A stretch of 63,992 nucleotides of DNA, counting the filler, from Stramenopiles sp. TOSAG23-6 (lineage: Eukaryota), in the NCBI GenBank assembly GCA_900128565.1. It is 5 parts of 5 records of this genome, joined end to end, with 100 filler letters (N's around TTAATTAATTAA, not from the genome) between each part and the next. Parts side by side here need not be neighbours in the genome. Positions count along the whole stretch, not along the records: positions 13,093 to 26,073 come from LT636181.1; positions 26,174 to 39,151 come from LT636182.1; 3 more parts are not named here. One strand, 5' to 3'. A program made the position numbers and the translations under genes. Every line of letters starts with the position of its first letter. Position 1 is the stretch's first letter. Below, in pieces: positions 12,993 through 59,823 of the stretch. The notes beneath the pieces are model-generated. The model searched no databases, was not told the origin of the DNA, and saw only the letters and a program-made list of their open reading frames with translations.

Positions 12993-13092
12993 NNNNNNNN
13001 NNNNNNNNNNNNNNNNNNNNNNNNNNNNNNNNNNNNTTAATTAATTAANNNNNNNNNNNNNNNNNNNNNNNNNNNNNNNNNNNNNNNNNNNN
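12993..13092. other. Artificial scaffold linker (N44-TTAATTAATTAA-N44)
   Basis: The same 100-nt six-frame-stop linker recurs at 26074-26173, 39152-39251 and 52195-52294. Confidence 0.97.
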
Positions 13093-13139
<47 letters not shown>

Positions 13140-13143
13140 ATAC

Positions 13144-14198
13144 ATTCCGGAGTCCAATTTTTTTTCTGCATGTAGAGCAATACATTGATCAACAAAAGCA
13201 CGACCGACAACACAGTCCGTCTTCATTTCCGCAAGCTTATGACTGACTGTTTGAAGATCAGATAAAACACCTTTAAATGCTTTGCGATCGTTGGTGTATT
13301 CTCTAGACCATTCAAAGACAGCCTCTGCGGCAGCAACACCCATATCAGCAATGAGTAATCTTTCTTGAGGAAGTTCTGTCATGACACAATAAAATCCTTT
13401 ATTAACTTCTCCTAACAACGCACTGGAAGGGACTCGGAGATCCTCAAAAAACAATTCTGAAGTATCTTGAGCTTTTAAACCCATTTTATCTAGTTTCTTT
13501 CCCTTGGTAAAGCCTTTCATCCCATCTTCAATCAAAAACAACGACACACCATGAGCACCCTTAGAAGGATCCGTTTTAGCACAGACAATCACCAAATCAC
13601 ACATCCAACCATTTGTTATAAATACTTTCGAACCATTAAGAATCCAATCATCACCATCCTGAACGGCTGTAGTCTTAATATTTGCAAAATCAGAACCTGC
13701 AGATGGTTCAGTCATTCCAAGAGCTCCAATCCACTCACCGGACACTAACTTGGGGAGTATCCGCTGCTTTTGTTCTTCAGTACCATAATTAGTGATATAT
13801 GGCGCGACAATATCAGAATGCATTGCAAATCCAGGTCCAGTACAACCACTGTATGATTGTTCCTCCCAAACAATGGCAGGGAACTTACAATCAACACCAA
13901 TACCGCCGTATTTCTCTGGAACCATGGTAGCTAACAATCCATTTTCACCAGCTTTCGTCCAAAGTTCTCGAGGTACTTGTCCATCTTTTTCCCATTCACT
14001 ATGGAAAGGAACAACTTCATTCTCGAAAAAACTACGTGTCATTTCACGAAACATATCGTGATCAGAATCAAAAATATCACGTGTTCCAATGTCGGTGAGT
14101 TTTGAAGCCTGAGCAGGATTTGGACGGCTCATGGAAGAAAAAGAAGACCGAAAAGTGCGCGATGCACCTTGATGTAGCAATTTAACATTACGAAGCAT
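13144..14198 (-). CDS. ACADL: Long-chain acyl-CoA dehydrogenase, mitochondrial (3'-truncated at an intron and the scaffold end)
   Basis: GALGMTEPSAGSD, WILNGSKVFITNG, KMGLKAQDTSELFF and ELPQERL motifs; N-terminal presequence. Confidence 0.9.
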
Positions 14199-14508
14199 TT
14201 TAATGTATAACGTTTGATCAGTTTTGACAGTTGTAGTTTAGGAAGTATATGCGACAGATAGTAATGCAAACTTTTAAAATAAAGCTGTTTGATAAGTTTT
14301 ATTATTACTGTAATAATAATATTGTCGTCGTTATATAAAAGTATCAAATGTTGGAACACATTTGACCCTTTGTTTTTTAGAAGTTACCCGGTAACTAACA
14401 AAACTCCAAAACTGTCGGATTTTGAGATGTCAAAGTAGTACTTGCTTTCTCTACTATTGTGTCATACTTTTTGTTAATATATATTCTTATTTACAAAATC
14501 TTATAAAA

Positions 14509-14561
14509 TGGGGTGTAGCTCACTTGGTAGAGCGCTCGCTTTGCATGCGAGAGGCAGGGGG
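14509..14561 (+). tRNA. Partial tRNA-Ala(UGC) running into a gap; probably a scaffolding duplicate
   Basis: Identical to the 5' part of 14826-14898; the mirrored arm has only one copy. Confidence 0.5.
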
Positions 14562-14825
14562 NNNNNNNNNNNNNNNNNNNNNNNNNNNNNNNNNNNNNNN
14601 NNNNNNNNNNNNNNNNNNNNNNNNNNNNNNNNNNNNNNNNNNNNNNNNNNNNNNNNNNNNNNNNNNNNNNNNNNNNNNNNNNNNNNNNNNNNNNNNNNNN
14701 NNNNNNNNNNNNNNNNNNNNNNNNNNNNNNNNNNNNNNNNNNNNNNNNNNNNNNNNNNNNNNNNNNNNNNNNNNNNNNNNNNNNNNNNNNNNNNNNNNNN
14801 NNNNNNNNNNNNNNNNNNNNNNNAA

Positions 14826-14898
14826 TGGGGTGTAGCTCACTTGGTAGAGCGCTCGCTTTGCATGCGAGAGGCAGGGGGATCGATGCCCTCCACCTCCA
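14826..14898 (+). tRNA. tRNA-Ala(UGC)
   Basis: Cloverleaf: D-stem GCTC/GAGC, anticodon stem CTCGC/GCGAG with TGC, T-arm GGGGG-ATCGATG-CCCTC, G3:U70, discriminator A, downstream T-run terminator. Pair 1:72 is a U-C mismatch. Confidence 0.9.
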
Positions 14899-15147
14899 AT
14901 GTTTTTTCTTTTTTTGAAAAAAATTGTTTTTTTTTTTGAAAGGTCGAAAAAAAGCGATCAAATAAAATGTGACCCTAACCCTACAAGAGACCATAAAAAG
15001 TAGAAACAGACACAAGAAAATTCTAAAAAGTGTACCATTACAATGACAATGTATCCATAATATTGCCTGTATACAATAATTGAATAATTTATTACGTGTG
15101 TATTAATCTTTGTTTGCTATAACTTGAGTCAATCTTACTTTTATACA

Positions 15148-17397
15148 ATGACTGTTTCACCTAAAAATACTAATTGGGCGCGTGAGCTCAATGCGTTTGC
15201 CATTGAGCCTGGGAACCGTGTATGCGCAGATTGTGATTTTTATCCTTTAGAGGGGAGTTCGACCTTTGTATGTTTATTACATAATGTTTTTGTGTGTGAA
15301 CATTGTGCTAATGCTCGGTTTGATGTTGTTCCTAATAGTGTTGATACTGCCGCAGCTGATTCTGGTGATACTGCCGCCGCTGTTTCTGCTACACACGAGA
15401 GGAAAAAAGTCCTTAGGTCTCTTTATGCTCGTAACTGGTCACGAAAAGAGGTTGAATCTGTCTTGAAGGGTGGAAATAGCCAACAAAATAACGTCCTTGA
15501 ACACTTTATACCAAAAAAGTTCATGAAGCCTCAACCAGATGCGACGTTTGAGTCTCGGAAGTCGTGGATAAAGTTAAAATATGAACAACATATGTTTGCC
15601 ATGCCCTATGGCAAACAAAGAATGAAAGAAAACTCTGCTTTAGCTGCGCTTGCACGACCTGTCCTTGCAACATCAAATACGTTGCCTATTCGTTTGGTTG
15701 ATTATTTTATTGTATTTGGTCCAAAAGGACGAGCAAAGAGAAAATTACCTAATCCTAACACTGACACGAAATGCAGCACGGATTCCGATGGAAAGGAAAA
15801 CGTAGACAAGACACTGGATGTTCTGGAATCCATTCCATTAGAATCACAGATTGAAAGTCAATATCCACCAAAAAATAAACCTTATCGCGATGACTGTACT
15901 GTTCCTCATTCTATCGTCGAGTTTTGCTTTCCACATAAAAGTTTTAGAACGCGCTCAGAAAGTTGTTTGTTAACCCTAACCCTAATCATGAATTTTAATT
16001 TTTTTTTTTTTTCATAGTAAATTTTGTACCTAACAAATTTAAAAAAAAAAAAAAAAAACACTTTTGAAATCTTTTTCACAATATATGTGAACCTACTCTT
16101 CTTGATTTTATCTTGACCAATACGAGTGGTGTAAAACAATATGGTAGTGCATTGATTATGTATGAACCAATATCAAAACTACAGGCAAGAGAAATTTTTG
16201 CAGAAGAATTAATAGAATGTTCTTTAGGGGATCGATTTGAATTTGGTATTGTAAATGATCACTCAGCAGCCACTCTACATGAAGTGTCTATAAATGATAC
16301 TATCAATGATACTATAAATGATACTATAAATGATAATACAGATGAAAAAAGTAATACAAACAAAAAAAATAATATTACAAATAATAAAAATGAGAAAAAT
16401 ACAAATAATAAAAATAATAAAAATAATGAAAATACACGAAATCAACAAATTCAAGCACAAGTGGCTTTTTCCTTGACTAGAAAAGTTCGTAAGTTTGCTG
16501 CGGATTCTTTTTTTGATAAATTATCAATTTTAGATGAGCTTGAAATACATCCAAAACAGAATCGAATTTTGATTCAAGAAGCCAAAAAAAACTTGGAAAA
16601 GACAAATGAAACAAAATTATTCGAAGACGTTCAAAAAATGCTTACCAAAGAATGTACATTTTCAAAAAAAAAAAAAAAAAAAATTTCATACAAAATTTCA
16701 AACCTAATCTCAAATAAAAAAAAAAATTTAAAAATTTTTTTTTCATTGAAAAAAATGGACAATGTTATGTACCAAAAGCTTTAGTCGTTCTTTCACATTA
16801 TTCGTTTTTTTCAGCATATCATATTTTTTTACAACAATGTATGTTTTTTTTTTTTTTTTTTTTAATTTTTTTTTCATAGGAAATTTTGTACCTAACAAAA
16901 ATTAAAATTTTTTTTTTGAAATATTTTTTCAAAAATACATTATTTCGATTAAGTCTTTCGTGTTCTCCTGTCCCAATTGAGCGATATATAACAAATTTCT
17001 GTAGTGAAATTCCATTACCACCTCGTGGTTTAGTTCAAGTTCGTGTAAATATTGCTGATGAAAGTTTTACATTATCAAGATGTATGTTTTATTTTTTTTT
17101 TTTTACAAAAAAAATCGAATTTATTTTTTTTATAAAAATTTTGTACCTAACAATTTTTTTTTTTTTTTTTAAATATTTTTCCAAAATACATCTGCACTTC
17201 GTAAAGAAGAAAAAGATGAAGACGATGCAGTTGCATCAAAAGCTCGACAAGCGAGAGAAATGGTTTTCAATGCTAGAGCTGTAAAAGAAAAGAAGATTTT
17301 TGATGAAAAAGTAGCGAAAGAAAAAGCTGATAAAAAAGCTGAAGAAGAAGCAGAAGCAAGACGAAAAGAATTTTTTGGGGACAGCTCTGAAGATTAA
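15148..17397 (+). CDS. ArfGAP zinc-finger plus DENN-domain protein, 4 family introns; last exon of doubtful origin
   Basis: GNRVCADC..VCEHCA..GGN..WIKLKYE (ArfGAP); VDYFIVFG, FCFP, FILTNTSGVKQYG, YVPKALVVLSHYSFF and IPLPPRG (uDENN/DENN). Confidence 0.8.
15965..16086 (+). mobile_element. Introner-family intron, GT-AT
   Basis: TT|GTTTGT..TACCTAAC..CACAATATAT|GT joins ESCEPTLLDFILTN in frame. Confidence 0.75.
16839..16940 (+). mobile_element. Introner-family intron, GT-AT
   Basis: AT|GTATGT..AAAATACAT|TA gives FLQQLFRLS. Confidence 0.8.
17082..17191 (+). mobile_element. Introner-family intron, GT-AT
   Basis: AT|GTATGT..CCAAAATACAT|CT; the downstream frame stays open to 17397. Confidence 0.7.
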
Positions 17398-17522
17398 TCT
17401 TCTCATTTTAAAAATATATATATACTTTAAGAAATAATAAATACACGTCAATAAATCACGTTTTTAAATGTATGTTTTTAGTTATTTATCAAACACGTTT
17501 TTAAATGTCTCTTTTTATGTTT

Positions 17523-19245
17523 TTAGTTATTCGTTACATTTTCTTGATCACAAAATTTACGTTTAGATCCAACTCGATTTATATGTTCTTTATTTTTATG
17601 AGAATCTTTGATTTCTTTGGAGTATCCTTGTGAATATGCTGATGAATCTACTTTTACTTTTTCTTCATCACGAATTCCAATCTTCAAAACTTCAAAAATT
17701 GCAGTTCCACATTTCCTCGATGAAGATTTGACTAATTGAGCTACTCGCTTCATATTATGAAATTGTAATATAATTCGATTATTACAAGAATGTGCCCATG
17801 TTTCTCCCAGTGCTGGAACCATGTATTGTCAACAAAAAACAAATACAAAAAATTGGTCAAAAAAAATAGGTAAAAAAAATTCATACAAAGAAAAAAAAAT
17901 CTAAAAAAAAAATCTAAAAAAATTTGTTAGGTACGAAATTTCGTACGAAAAAAAAAATCATACAACAAAAAATTTCATCATGAAAAAATACATTTTCCCT
18001 TCTTTACAGCCTGTTTGAGGATTTACAGCAATTCTTGTAGTCATCTGGTTGACAACCACAACAGATGCAGGTGTACATAGAGCAAGTTGATGTAAGCACT
18101 GAGCCATTCCTGAGAGCATGAATTGTGAAAAAATATTTCTTTTTTTACAAAAAAAAAAAATTGTTAGGTACAAAATTTTCTGTGAAAAAATAAAAAAATT
18201 CGAAATTGTGGAAATGAAAACGTATATTCTCGCTCGTTTAGCCATATTGGAAAAATCTCTCCTAAAATGAAAACTGACACTATCAATAATAATTATTCGA
18301 ATCAGTGGATTTTTTTCTATGAAATTCTCTAAATTTTGTATAATAGCCAATTGTTCTCGAAAATCGTGAGCTCTATAAACATGTATTGTGAAACATTCAA
18401 AAAGAAAAAAAACGTTAGGTACAAAATTTTCTATGAAAAAAATAAATAAATTCGAAATTGGTAAAAAAATGATGAAAAAAACAAACGTGAATATTGGATA
18501 GTATAGACTCTCTTGTAAACTGTTTTGCTTCTTCAAGGTAATCTTTATCATCTATTGTAGAACTACTAGATGATTTTGTACGTTTACGGTTTTTCCGTGT
18601 GGCCATTTTTTTAACATGACGAACTAAAGCATCAGCAATTTGAGCGACACGACTGACCATAAAACTGCCTTCGGTATCAATGTAAATGGCATGGCCACCA
18701 ACACCACCAAAGCATTTTGGTATTTGTACATCAACTGCTAATTGGATCATTAGTTGTGTTTTACCTACACCTGCGACACCAACGACTTCGGTTACTTCAC
18801 GCAAAGGAATACCATTTGGGTCAAAAAGCGTGTCCAGTGAACGACAAAAAGAAATTACATTTGGTCCATTGTTTTCGCTCAATAAATCTAGCGCTGTTTT
18901 TGTACGAAGTGGATTTTTACTCAGGGGCTGTGCATGATTGGTGTTTTGTCTTTGTATGGAATCATTTGATTGGCCATTTTGTGAATTTGTGGACTGTAAA
19001 GTTGTGTTACCACTCACTGTTTCAACTGAAGTACCACCACTCGTTCGTACAAGTTTAATTATTTCAAGAGCATCAGAGTTTGACACATCTAAATCTCGAG
19101 ATAGTTCAAGTGGGCTTATGTCCACGAGTTGAGTTGCAGTCTCAAAACCAGCTTCTCTAAGCTTGTTATGAAATTTAGGAGGAAAAGCAAGACAATATAG
19201 TGGTAAAGAAGCCGTAGCTGAGGTCACCGATACTACGCTTTCCAT
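17523..19245 (-). CDS. RAD51C: RAD51 paralog C; exons 19245-18487, 18380-18226, 18117-17992, 17820-17523
   Basis: Walker A GVAGVGKTQ, LAVDVQIP..GG..AIYIDTEGSF, IIIDSVSFHFR, NQMTT and PALGETWAH motifs; three family introns. Confidence 0.92.
17821..17991 (-). mobile_element. Introner-family intron, GT-AT
   Basis: AT|GTATTT..CAATACAT|G restores KMVPALGETW. Confidence 0.8.
18118..18225 (-). mobile_element. Introner-family intron, AT-AT
   Basis: AT|ATACGT..CAATTCAT|G restores RARMLSGMAQ. Confidence 0.75.
18381..18486 (-). mobile_element. Introner-family intron, GT-AT
   Basis: CAC|GTTTGT..CAATACAT|GTT restores LSNIHVYRAHDF; the next two AGs are out of frame. Confidence 0.82.
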
Positions 19246-19757
19246 TTGAAATCTACAACACTTCCTGCTGGAAATAAGTACGAATTAAACGCTGACCAAC
19301 GGATTAAACAAGCTAAAATAGCACTAAGTTAGAGATAGTTACAACAAAAACAGGCTTATCAATTCAACATATTTTCATCATTCTTGATTATTACCATAGG
19401 AAATCCATTACACACGCTGATTTCAGATTGATAATTTGGTCCAAGTAATGAATTTTAATGATAGCATAGCAATAATTAATTCATTGATTTGATTGATTGA
19501 AAAAATCTAGATCTTGTTTTTTCATTTGAATTTTATGTTACCCGGTCCCCTACGTCATTTTTATCTATTTCGAAATAATATTATTACTTTATATGATAGA
19601 TAATATTGGATCATATTTAGAATGTAAAGCGAAACTCTTAATGTATAAAACAGAACAAATGAACAACAATCATTTTTTTGTTTGAAAAAATAATTACGTA
19701 CAAAATCTGGTACAAACAAAAATTAGGAAAAAAATCAAGAGGATTATTTAATATTTA

Positions 19758-21158
19758 TTATAGAAAAGTTGGATTATCTAAATCTAATCTAGATAATTTC
19801 GATACTGCAAGCATTTGCTCTGGTAATTCGTATTCATCACAACCTTGAAGAACAAAACCAATATTACAAATCAAATCTTTTACATGACCTCGAAAAGTCT
19901 GCATTAATTTAACTGCCATTGCTTTGAATGAGGAAACATCAACGTCAATTTCAATGTATTATGGAAAATATTTCAAAAAAAAAAACTAAAATTTGTTAGG
20001 TACAACATTCCGTACGAAAAATAAATTCAAAATTGAAAAAAAATAAAACATATATGTAACTATCTCCTGTATACTGCCGATCACTAGGATGCATTTGCAA
20101 TCCACGGTGATAAAACCTCGCTGTTTTTGCTATTATAAAAGGCGTTGCATTTGCAGATTCACAAATCATTCCAAGTTTTAGTTGTTTCATATTTGTGGAG
20201 TCAACAATGCATTTCACGCGATGATCACCGTTATCCCATTTATTGACAACTTGTTTTTTATCTGAAGATAAAAAGTTAAATCTTGATTTTTCTATTATTA
20301 CTGGTGTAGCATCGCGAGGTCTTTTGCCCATAGACATGAACCAGTTTTGTGCCAACCGTATTCCAGCAACAGCGGCAGTGTCTGATATGTCGTTTGTGTT
20401 TGTTGTAGAATTTCTTCTTGCAGCAGATATCGCTTCAGAAAGTGAAGTTATATGTGAAAAATCACGAACTGCTCGTGCAGCTGCCTTTTCACCTTTTTTA
20501 GTAAAAACACTGAGACATTTGAGAAATTTTGTGGATACTTGATGGCCAATTAAGACATGTTCAGTTGGGCCATCTTTTACGGAACTAGATTTGAGTACTC
20601 CTCTATCCCACTTATATGGAAGTTGAGCACAAGTAAATAAAAATATAGGAATGGAAAATCTTCGACATGATCTGCGTACAGCTTCGTCAACAGTCGGTAG
20701 GGAAAATATTTTTTTTGAGGCAGCATATGAAACAAGATTGTCAACTCTTTTAGGAGCTCTAAATATCTCTACGCCAATGACATCATATAAAGAAAACGTA
20801 GAGGGTACTTTTTTAGGATTCTTTGTTGCAGATTTACGTCGAAAACCTTTTTTTGACTTGGAACTAAAATAATCAGTACTACGAATATTAAAATCAGAGC
20901 CTGAAGCAACAGAAAAATTTGTTTTCTTTTCACCATGCAAAGTGTAACCAAATATTCGGACACCACTTTTAGAATGTCTCTTCTGTGGAGTTTTCGCACC
21001 ATGACTGCTAGAGACACCAGGATTTGAGTGACTTTTACTGGGACGACAAGGTATAACTGGTGGTACTTGGGAAGCTTGCAATGGTGTCAGGTTTTGTGTT
21101 GCAGGTTCCTGACGTCTAAATGTTATTTTTAGCGGTCTTGATGCGGCTATTATCAGCT
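19758..21158 (-). CDS. EDR2 C-terminal (DUF1336) domain protein; 5' end lost at the inversion junction
   Basis: FNIRSTDYF, YIEIDVDVSSF and IGFVLQGCDEYELPEQML motifs after removing 19954-20053. Confidence 0.75.
19954..20053 (-). mobile_element. Introner-family intron, AT-AT
   Basis: AT|ATATGT..TACCTAAC..TAATACAT|T restores YIEIDVDV. Confidence 0.78.
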
Positions 21159-21768
21159 GTAAAGAAGGGAAAATGTATTTTTTCATGATGAAATTTTTTG
21201 TTGTATGATTTTTTTTTTCGTACGAAATTTCGTACCTAACAAATTTTTTTAGATTTTTTTTTTAGATTTTTTTTTCTTTGTATGAATTTTTTTTACCTAT
21301 TTTTTTTGACCAATTTTTTGTATTTGTTTTTTGTTGACAATACATGGTTCCAGCACTGGGAGAAACATGGGCACATTCTTGTAATAATCGAATTATATTA
21401 CAATTTCATAATATGAAGCGAGTAGCTCAATTAGTCAAATCTTCATCGAGGAAATGTGGAACTGCAATTTTTGAAGTTTTGAAGATTGGAATTCGTGATG
21501 AAGAAAAAGTAAAAGTAGATTCATCAGCATATTCACAAGGATACTCCAAAGAAATCAAAGATTCTCATAAAAATAAAGAACATATAAATCGAGTTGGATC
21601 TAAACGTAAATTTTGTGATCAAGAAAATGTAACGAATAACTAAAAACATAAAAAGAGACATTTAAAAACGTGTTTGATAAATAACTAAAAACATACATTT
21701 AAAAACGTGATTTATTGACGTGTATTTATTATTTCTTAAAGTATATATATATTTTTAAAATGAGAAGA

Positions 21769-24335
21769 TTAATCTTCAGAGCTGTCCCCAAAAAATTCTT
21801 TTCGTCTTGCTTCTGCTTCTTCTTCAGCTTTTTTATCAGCTTTTTCTTTCGCTACTTTTTCATCAAAAATCTTCTTTTCTTTTACAGCTCTAGCATTGAA
21901 AACCATTTCTCTCGCTTGTCGAGCTTTTGATGCAACTGCATCGTCTTCATCTTTTTCTTCTTTACGAAGTGCAGATGTATTTTGGAAAAATATTTAAAAA
22001 AAAAAAAAAAAATTGTTAGGTACAAAATTTTTATAAAAAAAATAAATTCGATTTTTTTTGTAAAAAAAAAAAAATAAAACATACATCTTGATAATGTAAA
22101 ACTTTCATCAGCAATATTTACACGAACTTGAACTAAACCACGAGGTGGTAATGGAATTTCACTACAGAAATTTGTTATATATCGCTCAATTGGGACAGGA
22201 GAACACGAAAGACTTAATCGAAATAATGTATTTTTGAAAAAATATTTCAAAAAAAAAATTTTAATTTTTGTTAGGTACAAAATTTCCTATGAAAAAAAAA
22301 TTAAAAAAAAAAAAAAAAAAAACATACATTGTTGTAAAAAAATATGATATGCTGAAAAAAACGAATAATGTGAAAGAACGACTAAAGCTTTTGGTACATA
22401 ACATTGTCCATTTTTTTCAATGATTGATGTATTTTGGAATAATATTTCAAAAAAAATCTAAAAAAATTTGTTAGGTACNNNNNNNNNNNNNNNNNNNNNN
22501 NNNNNNNNNNNNNNNNNNNNNNNNNNNNNNNNNNNNNNNNNNNNNNNNNNNNNNNNNNNNNNNNNNNNNNNNNNNNNNNNNNNNNNNNNNNNNNNNNNNN
22601 NNNNNNNNNNNNNNNNNNNNNNNNNNNNNNNNNNNNNNNNNNNNNNNNNNNNNNNNNNNNNNNNNNNNNNNNNNNNNNNNNNNNNNNNNNNNNNNNNNNN
22701 NNNNNNNNNNNNNNNNNNNNNNNNNNNNNNNNNNNNNNNNAAAAAAAATTTTTAAATTTTTTTTTTTATTTGAGATTAGGTTTGAAATTTTGTATGAAAT
22801 TTTTTTTTTTTTTTTTTTTGAAAATGTACATTCTTTGGTAAGCATTTTTTGAACGTCTTCGAATAATTTTGTTTCATTTGTCTTTTCCAAGTTTTTTTTG
22901 GCTTCTTGAATCAAAATTCGATTCTGTTTTGGATGTATTTCAAGCTCATCTAAAATTGATAATTTATCAAAAAAAGAATCCGCAGCAAACTTACGAACTT
23001 TTCTAGTCAAGGAAAAAGCCACTTGTGCTTGAATTTGTTGATTTCGTGTATTTTCATTATTTTTATTATTTTTATTATTTGTATTTTTCTCATTTTTATT
23101 ATTTGTAATATTATTTTTTTTGTTTGTATTACTTTTTTCATCTGTATTATCATTTATAGTATCATTTATAGTATCATTGATAGTATCATTTATAGACACT
23201 TCATGTAGAGTGGCTGCTGAGTGATCATTTACAATACCAAATTCAAATCGATCCCCTAAAGAACATTCTATTAATTCTTCTGCAAAAATTTCTCTTGCCT
23301 GTAGTTTTGATATTGGTTCATACATAATCAATGCACTACCATATTGTTTTACACCACTCGTATTGGTCAAGATAAAATCAAGAAGAGTAGGTTCACATAT
23401 ATTGTGAAAAAGATTTCAAAAGTGTTTTTTTTTTTTTTTTTTAAATTTGTTAGGTACAAAATTTACTATGAAAAAAAAAAAAAATTAAAATTCATGATTA
23501 GGGTTAGGGTTAACAAACAACTTTCTGAGCGCGTTCTAAAACTTTTATGTGGAAAGCAAAACTCGACGATAGAATGAGGAACAGTACAGTCATCGCGATA
23601 AGGTTTATTTTTTGGTGGATATTGACTTTCAATCTGTGATTCTAATGGAATGGATTCCAGAACATCCAGTGTCTTGTCTACGTTTTCCTTTCCATCGGAA
23701 TCCGTGCTGCATTTCGTGTCAGTGTTAGGATTAGGTAATTTTCTCTTTGCTCGTCCTTTTGGACCAAATACAATAAAATAATCAACCAAACGAATAGGCA
23801 ACGTATTTGATGTTGCAAGGACAGGTCGTGCAAGCGCAGCTAAAGCAGAGTTTTCTTTCATTCTTTGTTTGCCATAGGGCATGGCAAACATATGTTGTTC
23901 ATATTTTAACTTTATCCACGACTTCCGAGACTCAAACGTCGCATCTGGTTGAGGCTTCATGAACTTTTTTGGTATAAAGTGTTCAAGGACGTTATTTTGT
24001 TGGCTATTTCCACCCTTCAAGACAGATTCAACCTCTTTTCGTGACCAGTTACGAGCATAAAGAGACCTAAGGACTTTTTTCCTCTCGTGTGTAGCAGAAA
24101 CAGCGGCGGCAGTATCACCAGAATCAGCTGCGGCAGTATCAACACTATTAGGAACAACATCAAACCGAGCATTAGCACAATGTTCACACACAAAAACATT
24201 ATGTAATAAACATACAAAGGTCGAACTCCCCTCTAAAGGATAAAAATCACAATCTGCGCATACACGGTTCCCAGGCTCAATGGCAAACGCATTGAGCTCA
24301 CGCGCCCAATTAGTATTTTTAGGTGAAACAGTCAT
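21769..24335 (-). CDS. Duplicate copy of the ArfGAP-DENN gene
   Basis: Identical ORFs; this copy shows the ..CCAAAATACAT|CA acceptor of intron 2, which is collapsed in the left copy. Confidence 0.7.
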
Positions 24336-24584
24336 TGTATAAAAGTAAGATTGACTCAAGTTATAGCAAACAAAGATTAATACACACGTAATAAATTATT
24401 CAATTATTGTATACAGGCAATATTATGGATACATTGTCATTGTAATGGTACACTTTTTAGAATTTTCTTGTGTCTGTTTCTACTTTTTATGGTCTCTTGT
24501 AGGGTTAGGGTCACATTTTATTTGATCGCTTTTTTTCGACCTTTCAAAAAAAAAAACAATTTTTTTCAAAAAAAGAAAAAACAT

Positions 24585-24657
24585 TGGAGGTGGAGGGCAT
24601 CGATCCCCCTGCCTCTCGCATGCAAAGCGAGCGCTCTACCAAGTGAGCTACACCCCA
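24585..24657 (-). tRNA. tRNA-Ala(UGC), duplicate copy
   Basis: Reverse complement of 14826-14898. Confidence 0.85.
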
Positions 24658-24967
24658 TTTTATAAGATTTTGTAAATAAGAATATATATTAACAAAAAGT
24701 ATGACACAATAGTAGAGAAAGCAAGTACTACTTTGACATCTCAAAATCCGACAGTTTTGGAGTTTTGTTAGTTACCGGGTAACTTCTAAAAAACAAAGGG
24801 TCAAATGTGTTCCAACATTTGATACTTTTATATAACGACGACAATATTATTATTACAGTAATAATAAAACTTATCAAACAGCTTTATTTTAAAAGTTTGC
24901 ATTACTATCTGTCGCATATACTTCCTAAACTACAACTGTCAAAACTGATCAAACGTTATACATTAAA

Positions 24968-26022
24968 ATGCTTCGTAATGTTAAATTGCTACATCAAGGT
25001 GCATCGCGCACTTTTCGGTCTTCTTTTTCTTCCATGAGCCGTCCAAATCCTGCTCAGGCTTCAAAACTCACCGACATTGGAACACGTGATATTTTTGATT
25101 CTGATCACGATATGTTTCGTGAAATGACACGTAGTTTTTTCGAGAATGAAGTTGTTCCTTTCCATAGTGAATGGGAAAAAGATGGACAAGTACCTCGAGA
25201 ACTTTGGACGAAAGCTGGTGAAAATGGATTGTTAGCTACCATGGTTCCAGAGAAATACGGCGGTATTGGTGTTGATTGTAAGTTCCCTGCCATTGTTTGG
25301 GAGGAACAATCATACAGTGGTTGTACTGGACCTGGATTTGCAATGCATTCTGATATTGTCGCGCCATATATCACTAATTATGGTACTGAAGAACAAAAGC
25401 AGCGGATACTCCCCAAGTTAGTGTCCGGTGAGTGGATTGGAGCTCTTGGAATGACTGAACCATCTGCAGGTTCTGATTTTGCAAATATTAAGACTACAGC
25501 CGTTCAGGATGGTGATGATTGGATTCTTAATGGTTCGAAAGTATTTATAACAAATGGTTGGATGTGTGATTTGGTGATTGTCTGTGCTAAAACGGATCCT
25601 TCTAAGGGTGCTCATGGTGTGTCGTTGTTTTTGATTGAAGATGGGATGAAAGGCTTTACCAAGGGAAAGAAACTAGATAAAATGGGTTTAAAAGCTCAAG
25701 ATACTTCAGAATTGTTTTTTGAGGATCTCCGAGTCCCTTCCAGTGCGTTGTTAGGAGAAGTTAATAAAGGATTTTATTGTGTCATGACAGAACTTCCTCA
25801 AGAAAGATTACTCATTGCTGATATGGGTGTTGCTGCCGCAGAGGCTGTCTTTGAATGGTCTAGAGAATACACCAACGATCGCAAAGCATTTAAAGGTGTT
25901 TTATCTGATCTTCAAACAGTCAGTCATAAGCTTGCGGAAATGAAGACGGACTGTGTTGTCGGTCGTGCTTTTGTTGATCAATGTATTGCTCTACATGCAG
26001 AAAAAAAATTGGACTCCGGAAT
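24968..26022 (+). CDS. ACADL: Duplicate copy of long-chain acyl-CoA dehydrogenase (truncated)
   Basis: Identical translation; ends at AT|GTATGT. Confidence 0.85.
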
Positions 26023-26026
26023 GTAT

Positions 26027-26073
<47 letters not shown>

Positions 26074-26174
26074 NNNNNNNNNNNNNNNNNNNNNNNNNNN
26101 NNNNNNNNNNNNNNNNNTTAATTAATTAANNNNNNNNNNNNNNNNNNNNNNNNNNNNNNNNNNNNNNNNNNNNA

Positions 26175-26211
<37 letters not shown>

Positions 26212-26290
26212 TTAGTAAAAAAAATCGTTAGGTACAAAATTCCGTACGAAAAAAAAATTAAAAATTAAAAATTGAAGTATGAAAATGTAC

Positions 26291-27338
26291 ATGTATAACT
26301 GAAGAGATTCCTTTGTATTATTTAATTGAGCCTCCAATGTATTCAAAGCATGATCAGGGCTTGTGTACATTGTCATTGTTGATTTGGCTTGAATAGTTTT
26401 TGGTACGGGTGTAATATATTTTCGATTCTTGTTACGTGTATATATATTGGACAAAATATTTTTTTTTTTGTAAAAATTCGTTAGGTACGGAATTTTCTAT
26501 GAAAAACAAATATTGAAATTCATAATGAAAACATATCTACTGGAATAACAACTTTTCGTGTTTCCTTGGAAGAAATGATTTCTCGTTCACTAGATGTATA
26601 ATTTGATGCATCTGGTGTAAATGGCGTAGCAGCAGCCCAATCGGATTCAAATACTGAAGTTAAAAAGTCTAAAACTGGAGCAGCATCACCAGAAATGAGC
26701 ATTCCTGCTTCTCGATCATTCATTATTGAATTTTTTGACCAGTTGATACTGCTTACGCTCGCCTTTGATGTATCAAGACCCGTATCCATTTGCATATATT
26801 TGGCATGCATGAATGTCGTAGATGTATAATAACGTACTTCAACACCAGCAAGAGCTAAAAATGTTATTGGGTCAATCATTCCATCACATACATCAGTTTC
26901 ATAATTATTAGTCAAGATGCGGATTTTTACACCACGATGTACAGCATTTAACAAAGATTGAAACATTGGGAATGCTTCTTCAGATTGATTAGATACAGTA
27001 CATCCATAGCATTTTTGATTGTATCCGGTGCATCCTGACCAACTTGTGAGTCCTGGAGTTCCGACATCCAAAGTTTTTTTAGCTTCAGCAATAAATGTAG
27101 TTTCCACGGCTGCAGAGTGATCAGGCGAAAAGAAAGGCGTTAAAGAAAGTTCTTTACCTTTGATGGTTACAGGTGCGAATGAAACAGTGTACGGCTTAGT
27201 CTGGTGGTCAAATTTTGGTTCTTCTGTTCCGTCACCAAAAGTTTGATTCATGCGAATTATCGGACGATTTGTTGATGCGGCGACTGCTGCAACAAACAAT
27301 AGAGCAAATGACGAAATAAGTATTGCATATACTTGCAT
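26291..27338 (-). CDS. Secreted phospholipase D-superfamily protein (3'-truncated)
   Basis: Signal peptide MQVYAILISSFALLFVAAVAA; HxKxxxxD motif HAKYMQMD..SSINWS..DREAG. Introns at 26442-26536 and from 26290. Confidence 0.82.
26442..26536 (-). mobile_element. Introner-family intron, AT-AT
   Basis: AG|ATATGT..TACCTAAC..CCAATATAT|AT joins VIPVDTRNK in frame. Confidence 0.7.
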
Positions 27339-27772
27339 TATAAACAGTATTGGCGGTAAAAGAGATTTGCTAATATTTGTGTATGCGAAACAAGAGAGAA
27401 TTTGATTGAACTTGACTTGGCACTCGACTGAAGCTGAGCTAGTGGTTGTATTTTTTTTGGAATCCATCACTTTTGTTTTGACTTTTTTGATTTTTCATCA
27501 AATCATCAAATTTGACATTTTTTTGATGCCTCTGAATTAATTCGAAAATGTCAATTTTCGAGATTTCGATTTTTATTTTTATTTCGTCCTCTTCAAACAT
27601 TCTTAGATGTCGTGTTTTGAATTTAATTTCAAGTGAGAGAGCAACAAAAAACAATAGATTCATGTTACATATCTATGGATTTGTTATGTAAATTGATAGA
27701 GAAATAGAAATAAAAGCAATTCTAATTTCTAGATAAAAAACCGATATAATTTATTTTAATAATAAATGTTGT

Positions 27773-45398: not shown

Positions 45399-48300
45399 TT
45401 ATTCTTTCATTTCAGTGGATACAAGGCACTTTCCGACCATATCTTCATTACATGTCATTATTTTCAACTCTTGAATTAGAGCAGCGTTATCTTTAGTAAT
45501 TATTTTCATTTCAATGTCTGTTGTTGTTTCATCCGCACTTTCTTTTTCTTCTTCTTTTAAACAAATTCTATTTATTGTATCATTTACAGGATTAGTGTAA
45601 GGTTGAGATATTCGTTGTAACATCTCCTCCTTTTGAGCATGCCCAATTTTCCTTCGTAGATGTTTTTCTAATTCTGAATAAGCAAACGCTTCAAACTCTT
45701 TACAAGCCGACTCCAGAATATTTTCTGCTTTGATTTCAGTATCTTTGAGCTGATCTATATTGAAAGATTCACTTTCTTTATATTCCACATTTAACTCATT
45801 TGCGATTCTACTTTGAATCGATCGTTCTTCCAGTTCAGCTAAAGTCGAGTATTTTTCCATCTCGTCGTCAAACGCAATTTTCCATTCATTTTTTTCGCAT
45901 TTTAAGAAGTGAAGTTCTTCTTGTAGTTTTAATAAATTCATTTGCGAGACATTTCCCAAAAATTCTTCATTCTTTTCGACTGATTCTGTCTGTGATGAAG
46001 TATTTTGTAAATGTTTTGGGCTATGCGACGGCGGTTGACTTATGGACATTTCATTTTGTGAATTGTTTGAACTATTTAATGGTATTTGCCGTTTGGATAT
46101 GTCATTTTGTAAATTTTGAACCACGATTGCAGCTGCTTCTAATTTTCCTTTGTACTTTGAACACTTATTTTTATATTCTATTTTTGCTTGACTAAAAGAA
46201 AATTTAGTTCTTTCTAATTGACTAGATGTTCTACGCAATAATCCATACAGATCGAGAATTTCCTGGCGATGTTCATATATCTCCAGATCCTTTTCTTGTT
46301 GTTTTTTGTCGTGAATAAGGTTGCCAGTATTTATGCCAGAAACAATCTTTGCTTCAGTCAATTCCAATTTTTCCAAACTTAAATTAGACTTTGAATGTTC
46401 AATTTTCATTTCATGATATTCTTCTTGTATTGTCTGATATTCTTCATGTAATGCATCCAGGGATTGTTTTAGTTTAGTTTCCAAGATATTTTCTTCGCTA
46501 ATCTCACATATGTATTTTTGGAAAATAGTAAAAAATGTTTTGTATTGTTAAGTTGAAAACTTTGGTTCAAAAAAATAAATTTAAAGTTTTTTAGGTACAA
46601 ATTTTACTACGAAAACATTTTTGAAAACATACCTTTCTTGTTCATTTTGCTTCATTAGTTCGTACATTTGTTCTTCGGCAAATTTCAAATCAACATTACA
46701 TTGTGTACGATGATGTAATAGAACTTCTGATGTTACAGCTTCAAATTTACGAGTTAAATCTTGCAATTGCGTTTCTTCATTGATTGTTCGTTTTACTACA
46801 TTATTCTGTAGAACTACCTCATTCAAAGATTTCTCAATAGATTCTTTTTCCAAAGTAATTTTTTCTAAATTTATAGAAGTATCTCTGAGTTCATTTCGAT
46901 TCTTCTCTAGGCTTAGTTGAAGTTGTTTGATTTCTACATTATATTTACTTTCTGTGTCTTCTTTATAGGTTTCGTATAGTTTATCTTTTTCAGCAGCTAA
47001 TTCTATCATTGTTTCAATTTCAGATTTATTTTTTTCAGCAGCTAATTCTATCATTGTTTCAATTTCAGATTTCCTATTATCCCATTGTACATCAACCGCC
47101 TCTCTCTCTCGTGAAGTTTTAGACTCAATTTCGGTTTGAAATTGAAATATTTCGGCACGAAATCGATTGGCAGAATCTTTCATTTCTTGCTTCAAATTCG
47201 CTTCAGTGATTTTTGCAATTTCAAATTTAGAATTGAATTCTGATAGAAACTTTGCATGTAATGTATCAGCAATCTCTTTTTCTATATTAGTTTTTGTCTC
47301 TTGTTGTGTATTATTTTTTGATGCATCTTTTGCAATAGAATAATTATCTGTATTATTTTTTGGTGCATCTTTTGCAATAGAATAATTATCTGTATTATTT
47401 TTTAAGGTACTATTACTTTTGCAGAAACTTCGATTCGATTTTGGTTTAGGAGATTTAAATGTCAGTATATCAGTATTTCGTGGCTGTTCTTCGCATATTT
47501 CTTGTTCTTTATTTTCATCAATTAGACGAGGATGCTTGGTTGCTCTATTATCTATACTTAATGAATTTTCAGATGTATCACATTTAGAATGTCTCGTATT
47601 TGAAAAAATATTCTCTATTACTGGGTTATGATGGTATCCTTGGGTAGTACACGGTGACGGAAATCGACGAGGTGGGAGAATTGAATTATTCTCTGAAAAT
47701 AATATAGTAGGGTTGCCTTGAGTGTGATGTACATTTTGATTTGATTTGTATCGAATCGGCACTACCGCATCGTTTATTGGTGTATGGGGGGATGAAATAT
47801 CTTGATTTGATTTGTATCGTATTGGCACAGTAACATCGTTTATTGGTGTATGGGGAGATGATATGCATGTACTAGTATACATTATATGGGGAGAACGATT
47901 CTTTATACTCTTTGTTATTGTTCTTTCTTTCGGATATGCTTTTGGGTTAAGGTTTTTGTTTGGTGACTTTTTTTTAATTGAACAATCATATATATTTAAT
48001 AAAGACTTCTCTGAAATGTTGAAATCATTGTGAATATAATCTAAAATATATGACCAATCGATACTACCAGTACTATCTACATTAATTATAGTATATAAAA
48101 TATCCGCTTCTTCCATTGTCATTTTTGTTATTTGGCAAATTACAATAACGAATTCATCTTTTGTCATTTTATCATGTATTTTCATAAAATATGTCAAAAT
48201 TGATGTTTTTTGTTAGGTACAAAATTTGCTACGAAAAAAAATCGAAATTGGAAAACAATGAAACATTCAGGTCCATTTCTCGCAATACGCAAAAAGTCTT

Positions 48301-52445: not shown

Positions 52446-53611
52446 GTATCCTCCGGTGGCACCGCCTAATGCCTTACCTAGAGTAGATGTAATCACATCA
52501 ATTCTTCCCTGAACACCACAATGTTCATGTATTTTGGAAAATTATTTCAAAAAAAAAATTTCCGTAAAAAAAAAATTGTTAGGTACAAAATTTCGTACAA
52601 AAACAAAAAAAAAAAAAAATACAACATACATCTGTTCCACGGCCTGTTTTACCAAAGAAGCCTGAAGCGTGACACTCATCAATCATAACTTGTGCTTGAT
52701 ATGTATTGTGAAATATATTGTGTTGTAAAAAATAGTTGGGTACAAAATTTTCAAAAAAAAAATTAAATTGTGAAATTGTGAAATTGTGAAATGGTACATT
52801 TATCTGCTAAATCACAAATGTCACTTAGTGGCGCTACATCCCCATCCATTGAAAAAACGCCATCAGTAGCTATTAATTTTAATCGAGCTCCAGCTGCATC
52901 AGCTTCTTTTAATTTGTGTTCCAAGTCATCCATACACATATGTTCAAAACGATATCGTTTCGCTTTACAAAGACGAATTCCATCAATACTACATTTTGGA
53001 AAAATATTTCAAAAAAAAAAAATTCCGTAAAAAAAATCGTTAGGTACAAAATTTCGTACGAAAAAAAAAATCAATTTTTTGTTAAAAAAAAAAAATAAAA
53101 CATACATGGAGGCGTGATTTAAAGAGTCACTAATCACTGCATCATCTGCCGTTAGAATGGTTTCAAAAAGACCAGCATTAGCATCAAAACAACTCGGGAA
53201 AAGAATTGTATCTTCGGTTCCGTGAAACTTAGAAATGGCAGTCTCTAAATCTTTATGGATATCCTGAGTACCACAAATAAATCGCACCGATGCACAACCG
53301 AGTCCATGTGTCTCTAAAGTATTTTTAGCTGCTTGTACAAGTTCAGGGTGATCCGCCAACCCTAAGTAATTGTTTGCACAGAAATTTAATACTGGCTGCT
53401 TCGAACCTTGTACGGAAATTTCAGAATTTTGGGACGAGGTGATCACACGTTCATTTTTGAACGTTCCAGCCTCTTTTATTTCTTCGAGTTCTGCTTGCAG
53501 TATTTCCCGCATTGGAGTAAACGCAGCAGCAGTTTGATGTGCTCGAGTTGTAATAAAAGCATTTGAGTGAAGCTTCATAAATATTGATCTACATTTACTT
53601 GGGGATAACAT
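52446..53611 (-). CDS. GCAT: 2-amino-3-ketobutyrate CoA ligase, mitochondrial (3'-truncated); exons 53611-53106, 52988-52798, 52700-52630, 52526-52446
   Basis: [43 protein letters not shown] and TLGKALGGA motifs. Confidence 0.95.
52527..52629 (-). mobile_element. Introner-family intron, GT-AT
   Basis: GAT|GTATGT..CCAAAATACAT|GAA restores [15 protein letters not shown]. Confidence 0.87.
52701..52797 (-). mobile_element. Introner-family intron, GT-AT
   Basis: AT|GTACCA..CACAATACAT|AT restores [13 protein letters not shown]. Confidence 0.85.
52989..53105 (-). mobile_element. Introner-family intron, GT-AG variant
   Basis: AT|GTATGT..CCAAAATGTAG|T restores NHASIIDG. Confidence 0.9.
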
Positions 53612-55835: not shown

Positions 55836-58595
55836 TTATTGTTTTACTCTTGTTGCTTTTCTCTTGACTTTTTCAACAATATAACGAAAAAATGGAGGTC
55901 CAATGATTTGATTTATAACAACGACTGATATCATCGTTGTTGCAAATGCACCTCCCCAGCCACTGTATTCTAAATGTACTTTTTTAGCAAGTCCTAATGC
56001 TACTCCAGCTTGTGTGATGTATGCCATCCAAGATGATTTGTTCTCATCATCAGGCTCTCCGGACGCATATCCACCCAAATAAGCTCCAACCATAATTCCT
56101 AATATACGACCAACAACTATACTATATTTTGGAAAAATATTTCAAAAAAAAAAAAATCTAAAAAAACTTGTTAGGTACAAAATTTTTTTACAAAAAAAAA
56201 AAAAAAAAAAATTAAAACATACATAGATGCAATGTATAAATTCTCAGTCATGACTTTTAAATTAAGTGCTGCGCCGCATAATGTAAAAAAACTCACGTGT
56301 ACATATGGAGCAATCCGATCCTCCTTGTATTGTGAAAAATATTTTTTTTTGTAATTTCGAATTTATTTTTTTTCTTAGGTACAAAATTTCCTACGAAAAT
56401 TAAAAAAAAAAAATTTAAAAAAAAAACCTACATGGTGAGAAAGTGTTTGTTTCCATTGCTAAAGTTGACACACACAAAACCTGCAACAGTGCAAATAATA
56501 AGTGGTTGAAGGTATGGTTGAACTCTATGACCCACAGCAAAGGCAAGAAATCCACTAAGAAGTAAACATGTATTTTGGAAAAATATTTGAAAAAAAAAAA
56601 TTTCAATTTGTTAGGTACAAAATTTTTATAAAAAACCAAAAAAAAAAAAAAAAATCGAATTTGAAAAAAAACCAAAAAATAAAACATACATGTGTCTAAA
56701 ATTCTTGATATGATCTTTTGAAAACTTTGAGGGATATTGAGTGACCGAGTAGAGCTATCAAATCTGTCTTCATTTGAAAACTTATTTTGTTTAGGGTTAG
56801 GGTCAATAAGCCTTGTTGTAGTAGATGATTCATTAATGGAACTCTCAACATCTCGTGTTTCCAATCTTCCTTTATGTATTTTGGAAAAATATTTCAAAAT
56901 TAAATCCGTTAGGTACAAAATTTCGTATGAAAAATAAATTCGATTTTTTTTTTTTTTTTTTTTTTGGTAAAGAAAAAAAAATAAAAATAAAACATACATG
57001 TTTGGTTCTATAAGGTTCAATAATTTTATATACTTCAGATTTTTCAGATTTTTCAGATTTTTCAGTTTTTTCAGATTTTTTAGATTTTTTAGAATTTTTA
57101 GGGTTGAGCAACGGGTGATGAAATTTTGAATGTTTTGTGTTGAATAGAAATTCGTATAATTTATGACAACAAGAACATGGTGACTCAGGTGATAATGATA
57201 CTATCGCGGGTAAAAAAAACAAACCCCAAACAATTCCAAGTAATGCCGACATGCCTAACTGTGCAAAAAATACAGCAGTTACATAAATAGAACGAACTTC
57301 ATTAGCAAGCAATGCATTAGCAAATAACGAAGCTGCAGCAAAAATTCCAATGACAACTAAATCCATGACAACAGTGACTCCAAGAACCAATCTAGAAAAA
57401 GATAAATTTTCCGTGCCAGTTTCTCTAACTATTGCAATGGCAGATGCAGGAGATCTAGCTACAATAAGAGCTCCAGCCATCAAAGCCACTGCAAGAACTT
57501 GGTTCTGGCTCATTCCTTTCATAAACACAATTTGATTTGAAAGACAAACGACAAGAAATGTACCTACTAAATATTCAAACAGTACCAGTCCTAAAGTAAC
57601 ATACATAATAGCTTTCATGCGACCTTTCATTCGGCTTAATATCAGTTTACTTCCTGATGCATAGGATATAAATGCAAGGGCAGTTTCATCAATGAAACGT
57701 AGCGATCGAATGTCTGCCTCTGGTATTAGTTGTAGAGCTTGTGGACCGGTCAAGATACCCATTAGAAGAAAACCTGTTATTCTCGGTAAACCCATGTATT
57801 TTGGAAAAATATTTAAAAAAAAAAGTTTAAAATTTGTTTTCTATGAAAATTTCGTATGAAAACCAAAAAAAACAAAAAAAACAAAAAAAAAATAAAATAT
57901 ACATGCTAGGAAATGCCGCCCCAACACTTTGGCTCGCAACACAGACCATGGCAAAACGAACTGCAACTGCAAGTGATGGAATATAATCGCGTAATGATGG
58001 CGTATGTGTATTTCCACGAAGAGTATTTTTATCAGTGAATTTTGAGGCAGTACTTTTGTTATCCGCCGCATCAAGTACAGAGCAATCAATTGGCATTTTG
58101 CCAGCTGCCCAGTCCCCTTGCCCAGCTTGTAATGTAAAACTAAAAAAATAAGTAAAACCAGAAGGATCAAGTTTTACATTTCTTGCAGAGTTGAAACTAT
58201 CTGTAGCATTAAACCCATCAAGTAAACACAAACCTGGTCGCAATCCTACTTCCTCAGTACGTAGCCCAACAGTAATATTAGTCCCCATCATTGCAGGTGT
58301 ATATTTTGTGAAAAAAAAAAAAAAAAAAAAATTGAAATTCGTTAGGTATATAATTTCGTACGAAAACCAAAAAAAACAAAAAAAAAAAAATTTTACCAAA
58401 AAAAAAATTCATGGTGAAAATATACATGATCGGATAGTAAAGTGACTGCTTTAAGTTCTGGAGAGTTAGCATCAATACTTAACTCTGGATCATAAATATT
58501 CATAGGTCCTAAAGTCGATACATTTTTTGCTTCATCCACTAAAGAACATAAAAAAGGAAGTTGTCCAGAAAGCTGATTCACATATATTGTGAAAA

Positions 58596-59078: not shown

Positions 59079-59823
59079 ATATGTAATAGTTGTAAAGAAT
59101 GGCCAAAATCACCCATTAATTTTAATATAACAATTTCACGAGCCAAATGCAACGCTTCTGATTCATTTCTATCAATAATGTATTGTGTAAGATAGTACTG
59201 TGGTTTTAGGGTTAAACATCGTTTTAAAAAAAAAAACATGAAAAAATCATGAAAAAAAAAAAAAAATTGTTAGGTACAGAATTCCGTACAAAAAAAAAAA
59301 TCATGAAAAAAAAAAAAAAGACGTACACTTTTAATGCCACTTTTTTCCCTGTTGATTTCTCTATGCCATCATAAACTACTGCATATCGTCCAGTTCCAAG
59401 TTTTTCGCCAATGATGAAGCGATCTGTAAGTTTGGGATTCTGCATGGCTTTCTGACGTGTCGTTTTTGAGTTTTTTGAGTTTCGTGTACGTTTTGAGGTT
59501 GTTGTTTTTGAGGATTTCGAGGAATTCTCTTTTTTTTTATCTTTTTCATCACTTTGTGTTGTATTTTTGTCTTCTGTTGTTGTCCGAGGGGAAAAACTAG
59601 ATGCTAGAATACTTCCAGAAAGAAATCGATGTATCATAAATCGTGTACCATTTTGAATATCGGGTATATGAATCTCATCAGTATATAGAGCAAGAACACC
59701 AACTGAAAAAAAAGACATTGTAAGACAAGAGTTGCGTCGAAATTTGAAAAAATGATTATTTCGTAGAAAGACACCAAAGGAATTGTTGAAGACACGTGAC
59801 CTTAAAAATGACCACACAGTCAT
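59079..59823 (-). CDS. N-terminal fragment of a Ser/Thr protein kinase (subdomains I-IV)
   Basis: LGTGRYAVVY, VALKVIDR and LAREIVILK motifs; no catalytic loop follows. Confidence 0.75.
59178..59326 (-). mobile_element. Introner-family intron, GT-AT
   Basis: GT|GTACGT..CACAATACAT|T restores VALKVIDRNE. Confidence 0.75.

Follow-up and report, generated by a model that had tools for sequence, protein, structure and literature searches.

Three members beginning with A in a GT-AT intron family of Stramenopiles sp. TOSAG23-6

The window analysed here is a 63,992-nt stretch of the Stramenopiles sp. TOSAG23-6 assembly (GCA_900128565.1), in which contigs are linked by N-linkers, and it carries a GT-AT intron family with a unit of about 100 nt. 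Three minus-strand members of this family begin with A: intron 1 in a RAD51C-like gene, intron 2 in an EDR2_C (former DUF1336) gene and intron 3 in a PLD-like gene (Table 1). Few positions in eukaryotic genes vary as little as the first intron base, a G, and in model systems its replacement by A stops the second step of splicing unless the final intron base changes too. The explanation that we consider best, with a probability of roughly 0.6 for the whole, is that these three stretches are A-first family introns, removed at their family-aligned ends by a machinery resembling the major (U2-type) spliceosome. Protein alignments bear most directly on introns 1 and 2: exactly 108 nt would have to leave the RAD51C message and exactly 100 nt that of DUF1336 for the conserved residues to meet. 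Intron 3 is probably a non-canonical family intron too.

The census of the family comprises 26 complete, non-duplicated copies in the 64-kb window, with ends set by coordinates. For 22 of the 26 copies the ends come from the family alignment, while the exact ends of the other four (48174-48268, 56325-56431, 58301-58425 and 59178-59326) were chosen among neighbouring ends by reading frame. A copy near 16026 was excluded because several in-frame 5′ ends are possible there, GT among them, and four more copies, interrupted by gaps or by the end of the window, also stand outside the count. An open reading frame (ORF) of at least 35 codons is open on either side of the listed ends in 26/26 copies. 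The order of parts in the unit is an exonic AT, the donor GTATGTTTT, T-runs, a short palindrome, the core GTACCTAAC, further T-runs and the end ...AAAATACAT. With at most one mismatch, the core is found 45 times in the window against 6.2 expected, and 0/100 shuffles reach that number.

At the 5′ end the dinucleotide is GT in 22 copies, AT in three and GA in one; at the 3′ end it is AT in 23, AG in two and AA in one. Position +1 is G in 23/26 copies and A in 3/26, +5 is G in 22/26 and +6 is T in 25/26, while -1 is T in 23/26, G in 2/26 and A in 1/26, -2 is A in 26/26, and -3 is C in 21/26 and T in 5/26. Departures from the consensus number three at +1, one at +2, two at +3, seven at +4, four at +5 and five at -3; position +1 is therefore kept no better than the positions around it, and its changes go to A. 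An AT lies directly upstream of the donor in 21/26 copies. In a 21-row alignment the three A-first copies match the family at both ends, and the first intron column holds G in 18 rows and A in three. The first-pass annotation had described three copies with ATACGT or ATATGT at the start and AT at the end, in which A takes the place of G at +1, and the alignment confirms this. It had also named the host genes, and Pfam agrees in each case (Rad51 at 18418-19284, EDR2_C at 19758-21261 and PLDc_2 at 26523-27494).

Table 1. Coordinates of the three A-first candidate introns, their putative branch-like cores and flanking exons, competing splice models, and control introns of the KBL-like gene.
Feature	Position	Strand	Basis
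Candidate intron 1, RAD51C-like gene; 108 nt, ATACGT...TTCAT, in frame, stop-free	18118-18225	-	sequence and RAD51C chain alignment
Core GTACCTAAC of intron 1 (CTAAC branch-like motif), 46 nt from 3′ end	18163-18171	-	
RAD51C exon between the GT-AT family intron 18381-18486 and intron 1	18226-18380	-	
RAD51C exon downstream of intron 1, opening with conserved L-S-G-M-A-Q	17992-18117	-	
42-nt GT-AG mini-intron of public model P0001, from the GT at +5 of intron 1	18180-18221	-	
Candidate intron 2, EDR2_C/DUF1336 gene; 100 nt, ATATGT...TACAT	19954-20053	-	sequence and homologue alignment
Core GTACCTAAC of intron 2, 42 nt from 3′ end	19995-20003	-	
Last coding exon of the EDR2_C gene	19758-19953	-	Pfam, homologues
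Candidate intron 3, PLD-like gene; 95 nt, ATATGT...TATAT, 4 equivalent registers	26442-26536	-	sequence, open ORFs
Core GTACCTAAC of intron 3, 39 nt from 3′ end	26480-26488	-	
In-frame canonical GT-AG alternative to intron 3 (GT at 26540, AG ending 26428); 113 nt, 6 more codons removed; used by public model P0121	26428-26540	-	
Control GT-AT family intron, KBL-like gene	52527-52629	-	exact to residue
Control GT-AT family intron, KBL-like gene	52701-52797	-	exact to residue
Control GT-AG family copy, KBL-like gene	52989-53105	-	same aligned cut position

RAD51C structures match the host gene of intron 1. When the read-through ORF is aligned with solved RAD51C chains, query residues 56-109 correspond to chain residues 131-184 and query residues 145-179 to chain residues 184-218; the alignment is split, and the read-through ORF therefore holds 36 extra codons. 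A single residue stands at the junction, either the I ahead of intron 1 or the M at its end. Three equivalent registers, AT-AT, TA-CA and AT-TC, yield the product with M, and a fourth cut, TA..TG, would yield I. The flanking ORFs are open for 108 and 52 codons. A protein search for spliced RAD51C fragments gave only one close match, the gene model of the locus itself.

A different account of the three copies is that they are not removed at these ends at all: cryptic sites would be used (the GT at +5, or a GT-AG pair around intron 3) or the intron would be retained, and the A would be irrelevant or a recent damaging mutation. Splicing from the GT at +5 to another acceptor had been named in the first-pass annotation as an outcome that would overturn its claim. 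For intron 1 this GT is taken up in P0001, which joins it to an AG 42 nt on, and intron 1 can also be read through. The product of P0001 keeps 22 extra low-complexity residues inside the RAD51C ATPase core, where the solved chains have one, and no in-frame AG reached from that GT keeps the conserved L-S-G-M-A-Q. The public models also skip 30 codons within RAD51C exon 1.

The spliced model of intron 2, in which 20054 is joined to 19953, is gapless at the junction against 16/16 homologues and recovers the motif G-D-x-Y, with a hydrophobic residue and then E-x-D-x-D after it. The last exon corresponds to Pfam EDR2_C positions 157-213 (E = 4e-14); the C-terminal part of the upstream DUF1336 exon, searched alone against Pfam, gave no EDR2_C match, and homologues were used for it instead. 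A comparison of the last DUF1336 exon with short proteins gave no match, and a search of metagenome contigs for the DNA of DUF1336 relatives found none. The 5-nt direct repeat TACAT lies at both junctions and allows six registers with the same mRNA (AT-AT, TA-CA, AT-AC, CA-TA, AC-AT and TA-AA), none of which starts with G. The only AG ahead of the last EDR2_C exon leaves an in-frame stop, and use of the GT at +5 would add two residues inside the motif that is gapless in all 16 homologues. Retention would bring a stop codon within 20 codons, and the downstream exon is nonetheless open and conserved. As judged from these residues, it is a solid conclusion that introns 1 and 2 could not start with GT and end with AG, and the GT at +5 with another acceptor fails for both.

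For intron 3 the evidence leans the same way without settling the choice. The ORFs on its flanks extend over 299 and 75 codons, a 50-codon exon downstream is limited by the next family donor, and retention would meet a stop codon within five codons. The in-frame GT-AG pair used by P0121 (Table 1) competes with the family-aligned ends here. The loop in which the junction lies measures 6-10 residues in 13 homologues, nine in the family-aligned model and three with the GT-AG pair, so that loop length favours the aligned ends. Relatives of the PLD gene in metagenome contigs amount to only eight loci of 32-41% identity and were not used. P0001 and P0121 also mis-handle plain GT-AT copies of the family; the public models thus reflect a gene finder confined to canonical sites, not RNA. 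With these points on both sides, cryptic splicing or retention is an unlikely account of the three copies. The first-pass annotation had suggested that the usual constraint on the first and last base is relaxed in an otherwise U2-like intron. This stands as a reasonable interpretation, short of demonstration: for RAD51C and DUF1336 homology demands removal at or next to the proposed ends and no GT-AG pair serves, and PLD has its in-frame GT-AG.

The aligned columns themselves can be checked in a KBL-like aminotransferase gene that carries three family copies (Table 1). Its exons align with chain 3tqx_A up to residue 139, from 141 to 203 and from 228, with one split codon per junction, and a 23-codon exon fills 205-227; the cuts in all three copies therefore coincide exactly with the aligned columns. 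AG-ending and AT-ending copies have their last column in common, and the AG that two copies carry there connects the AT-ending ones with an ordinary 3′ splice position.

The direct repeats leave room for another cut. If the whole family were cut two bases to the left, as ATGTAT...ATAC, its members would be AT-AC introns, the change from G to A would fall at the less critical position +3, and intron 2 would be a plain AT-AC intron. The AT ahead of 21/26 copies gives the same mRNA in both registers, intron 2 does read AT-AC at register -2, and for the family intron 18381-18486 the shifted register encodes the same amino acid. A first base A with a last base C is a known permitted terminal pair. 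AT-AC introns that depend on the U2-type spliceosome exist, according to the available part of PMC1557818. Against such a shift stand the five copies without an upstream AT and the three without an AT end, as well as the mixed ends that it would produce, AT-TC for intron 1 and AG-AT for intron 3, never AT-AC. In register 0, by contrast, 22/26 copies start with the GT of a GTATGT donor. No other register suits the AG-ending copies; at the AG-ending copy of the KBL-like gene this register gives a residue that fits the KBL motif H-A-S-I-I-D-G, residue 140 of chain 3tqx_A being, as we take it, I. The GT-AT register is thus favoured on parsimony, and a shift of the whole family appears quite unlikely.

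The splice signals of the three A-first introns look like those of the major (U2-type) class, not the U12-type. Their donors, ATACGTTTT or ATATGTTTT, resemble GTATGT and match it from +2 to +6 in all three, with A at +1, and none reads RTATCCTT as a U12-type donor would. Pairing of the donor with U1 and U6 was judged from consensus sequences, which may not be those of the small nuclear RNAs of this organism. The core GTACCTAAC is exact in all three, and its CTAAC, which conforms to the U2-type yUnAy, is followed by a T-rich tract; its role as a branch site is putative. The branch-like A lies 39-46 nt from the 3′ ends by hand count, within the interval of about 30-50 nt that the first-pass annotation had given, and the donors do look U2-like, as the same annotation had it. 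In U12-type introns, as defined in the part of PMC3584512 at hand, the branch is best placed 11-13 nt from the 3′ end and a pyrimidine tract is lacking, and the three introns show no such arrangement of a TCCTTAAC-like motif about 11-13 nt from the 3′ end. The 3′ YAG of U2-type introns is absent as well: the ends are CAT, CAT and TAT, and AG is found in 2/26 family copies.

The first-pass annotation had noted that G or A at +1 together with a variable last base is a U12-type trait, and the available part of PMC1557818 agrees, AT-AT and GT-AT being known mainly there. Among the U12-type introns of five species, that source lists AT-AT (12) and GT-AT (7), and AT-AN and GT-AT ends are able to support U12-dependent splicing (PMC1557818). 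The present family shares with such introns the terminal pairs, the tolerance of either purine at +1 and the variable last base. A minor (U12-type) spliceosome, transformed as in Physarum, where the accessible part of the source describes a large transformed minor-intron system (10.1101/2020.10.12.336362), could in principle remove the family and would account for either purine at +1 and the variable last base. The donor differs, with GT at +5/+6 where U12-type donors have CC, and so do the branch consensus and its distance, CCTAAC standing 39-46 nt from the 3′ end where 11-13 nt would be optimal, with a T-rich tract present; U2-dependent AT-AC splicing, for its part, would fit intron 2 only, and in the shifted register. 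Rfam finds a single tRNA family within the window, at two duplicated places, and nothing else. Removal by a transformed minor spliceosome is accordingly very improbable.

On the preferred explanation, the three stretches would be diverged copies of a transposon-like intron family, or introners. The element would be GTAT...ATAC flanked by an AT direct repeat, and the unit removed would extend from the G of GTATGT through the second AT. In the three copies the first base would have mutated from G to A, with donor positions +2 to +9, the CTAAC motif, the T-rich tract and the A at -2 left intact. Removal would take place at the family-aligned positions by the same machinery as for the GT-AT copies, most likely a major (U2-type) spliceosome that no longer needs G at the last intron base and hence does not enforce G at the first; the terminal U could partner either purine at +1. 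We infer RNA splicing as the route of removal, and likewise the exact register, the type of spliceosome and the partnering of the terminal U.

The origin proposed for the family agrees with its distribution. Complete and partial copies sit in genes of unrelated families, and they combine a terminal inverted repeat with a target-site-like direct repeat, as do introners and introns derived from miniature inverted-repeat transposable elements (MITEs). The exonic AT together with GTAT forms the reverse complement of ATACAT, and this 6-bp terminal complementarity is found in 84.9% of cells. It shows no covariation beyond that of shuffled alignments (318/500 shuffles are equally high), and RNAalifold predicts 0 pairs for a consensus structure of the family. 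The terminal complementarity most plausibly represents the inverted ends of a mobile element rather than an RNA helix under selection. A mechanism in which a terminal helix would act as a structural ruler was dropped: the +1:-3 pair would be AU in the PLD copy and is unpaired in the other two.

Several observations weigh against removal at the aligned ends. Contigs of four seawater metatranscriptome runs were compared with 18011-26073, a range that covers introns 1 and 2, and no RNA contig bridges either junction; splicing at the three sites is therefore deduced from conservation. The spliced-read check proposed in the first-pass annotation was thus carried out for two of its three junctions and yielded no bridging contig. 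The direct repeats allow three, six and four equivalent registers for introns 1, 2 and 3, respectively, and with a cut in another register the A would no longer stand first. Retention of intron 1, which is in frame and stop-free, would not truncate RAD51C. The GT-AG alternative of intron 3 is in frame, and the loop that flanks it is too poorly conserved to choose between the two. Only three copies are A-first, all of them T-ending like 23/26 of the family, so that +1 and -1 are not statistically linked. The assembly, finally, bears signs of amplification chimeras, and single-base errors are possible in it.

On the exons, the RNA contigs cover parts of the DUF1336 gene (X1, X2 and X9) and of RAD51C exon 1 (X4), and the joints listed among them all connect different family copies. 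The family interiors at 18011-18279, 19894-20162, 20970-21238 and 22315-22583 reach a summed RNA contig depth of up to 4310 (X4), far above that of the exons; possible sources of this high depth are the many copies, unspliced RNA and DNA carry-over. Small shares of the sequence words of the window are found in seawater metatranscriptomes. The closest database proteins at the RAD51C and PLD loci are public gene models of the same loci, with the label eukprot:GSMAST32. Taken with the EDR2_C gene, which is of a plant/protist type, these two observations suggest an uncultured marine protist as the host rather than a tunicate.

The A at +1 might also be a sequencing or assembly error, given an amplified single-cell assembly. 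The window is AT-rich (G+C 28-40%) and holds a perfect 5-kb inverted duplication, 12993-18010 against 21156-26173, found as three pieces of 1569, 1919 and 1292 nt with 99-100% identity, which is probably an amplification product or an assembly chimera; together with the N-linkers it is what amplified, concatenated assemblies typically show. The unique centre between the duplicated arms contains introns 1 and 2, and intron 3 is on the next contig. The same change is found at three independent loci in the same aligned column, and the RNA contigs at 18225 and 20053 have no differing letter listed, in a table that is no proof of identity. An error at all three copies is highly unlikely on these grounds. 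At the join 21155/21156 the reverse complement of a RAD51C intron is fused to the DUF1336 ORF, whose first ~35 codons are therefore not genuinely coding. The tRNA gene (Rfam, 49.9 bits) lies at 14826-14898 (+) and 24585-24657 (-), doubled by the inverted duplication.

Individual copies of the family vary in ways of their own. For 48174-48268 (-), in-frame removal needs either GA-AT ends, with the donor GAATGT and a departure at +2, or GT..TG, one base off. The copy at 56325-56431 (-), in a Na+/H+ exchanger gene, is in frame only as GT-AA, or as TA-AG after a one-base shift. A 364-nt intron at 61461-61824 (+), in a phosphodiesterase gene, contains 3-4 tandem partial repeats of the family interior with one donor and one ATACAT end. 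The copy at 57794-57902 (-) has normal GT and ATACAT ends and no GTACCTAAC core, so that the core is dispensable or another branch site is used there. In many copies the 10-nt perfect palindrome TTCGTACGAA, found at about 20012-20021 (-), or a near variant of it precedes the branch-like core by 5-10 nt. Telomere-like CCCTAA repeats lie inside two family introns, at 15970-15988 (+) and about 59205-59215 (-), and one RNA contig has a 12-nt GTTAGG-type insertion behind 23723.

A literature search of main texts, supplements aside, found no description of a GT-AT family in a marine stramenopile-like protist. The closest parallels appear to be the non-canonical introns of Fritillaria and Amoebophrya. 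In Fritillaria borealis and F. pellucida, as far as the available part of PMC13326754 goes, introns without GT/AG, A-first and AT-ending ones included, are removed by the U2-type spliceosome alone; a 3′ AT is the commonest end there (34% and 44% of introns), and the main classes begin with A and end with C or T. Fritillaria introns close with a pyrimidine-A-pyrimidine (YAY) triplet; here C or T stands at -3 in 26/26 copies and A at -2 in 26/26, and YAT closes 23/26, the three A-first copies among them. An introner transposon origin is discussed in that portion of the source too. A YAY triplet often stands directly ahead of the donor in Fritillaria as well; the triplets upstream of the three A-first copies are AAT, CAT and TAG, one of which is YAY. 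Fritillaria, a larvacean tunicate, is however an animal, whereas the present host is a protist with an EDR2_C gene. The donor here is GTATGT and A-first copies are a 3/26 minority, while AG-first classes dominate in Fritillaria, and here one sequence family holds all the introns counted.

The family resembles introner- or MITE-derived introns of Micromonas, Aureococcus and others in its numerous near-identical copies of about 100 nt, all of them in sense orientation and in unrelated genes, and also in its short terminal inverted repeats and its 2-nt direct repeat, one copy of which is removed with the element (available parts of PMC11282704 and PMC7789003). Those introners carry canonical splice motifs (PMC7789003, as available). 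Here the target that is duplicated is AT, which gives a 3′ end of AT in place of AG, and A is another first base that occurs. With Amoebophrya the family shares inverted repeats that join the intron ends, direct repeats of a few bases that blur the borders, and the failure of canonical-only gene finders. The same portion of PMC7789003 reports for Amoebophrya no preferred terminal dinucleotides, inverted repeats of 8-20 nt and a proposed non-standard mechanism, unlike the conventional donor, branch motif and T-tract seen here, where the complementarity is 6 bp long and without covariation.

More tentatively, the major spliceosome of this stramenopile-like lineage could have swapped the contact between G(+1) and G(-1) for one with a terminal U, as a G-U or A-U pair, so that the only fixed need at the 3′ end would be the A at -2 and G(+1) would be dispensable. 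Such an arrangement would be a third natural solution beside GT-AG and AT-AC, brought about by a transposon that provides the 3′ end through duplication of its AT target; we regard this extension as possible and speculative. At the level of annotation, P0001 and P0121 force canonical sites on these genes and probably arrive at wrong proteins, in which an intron is kept as protein or codons are deleted. If the family is AT-ended, with about 1 in 9 copies A-first and its host genes intact, this protist would represent a natural lineage that can serve as a test bed for the constraints on intron termini.

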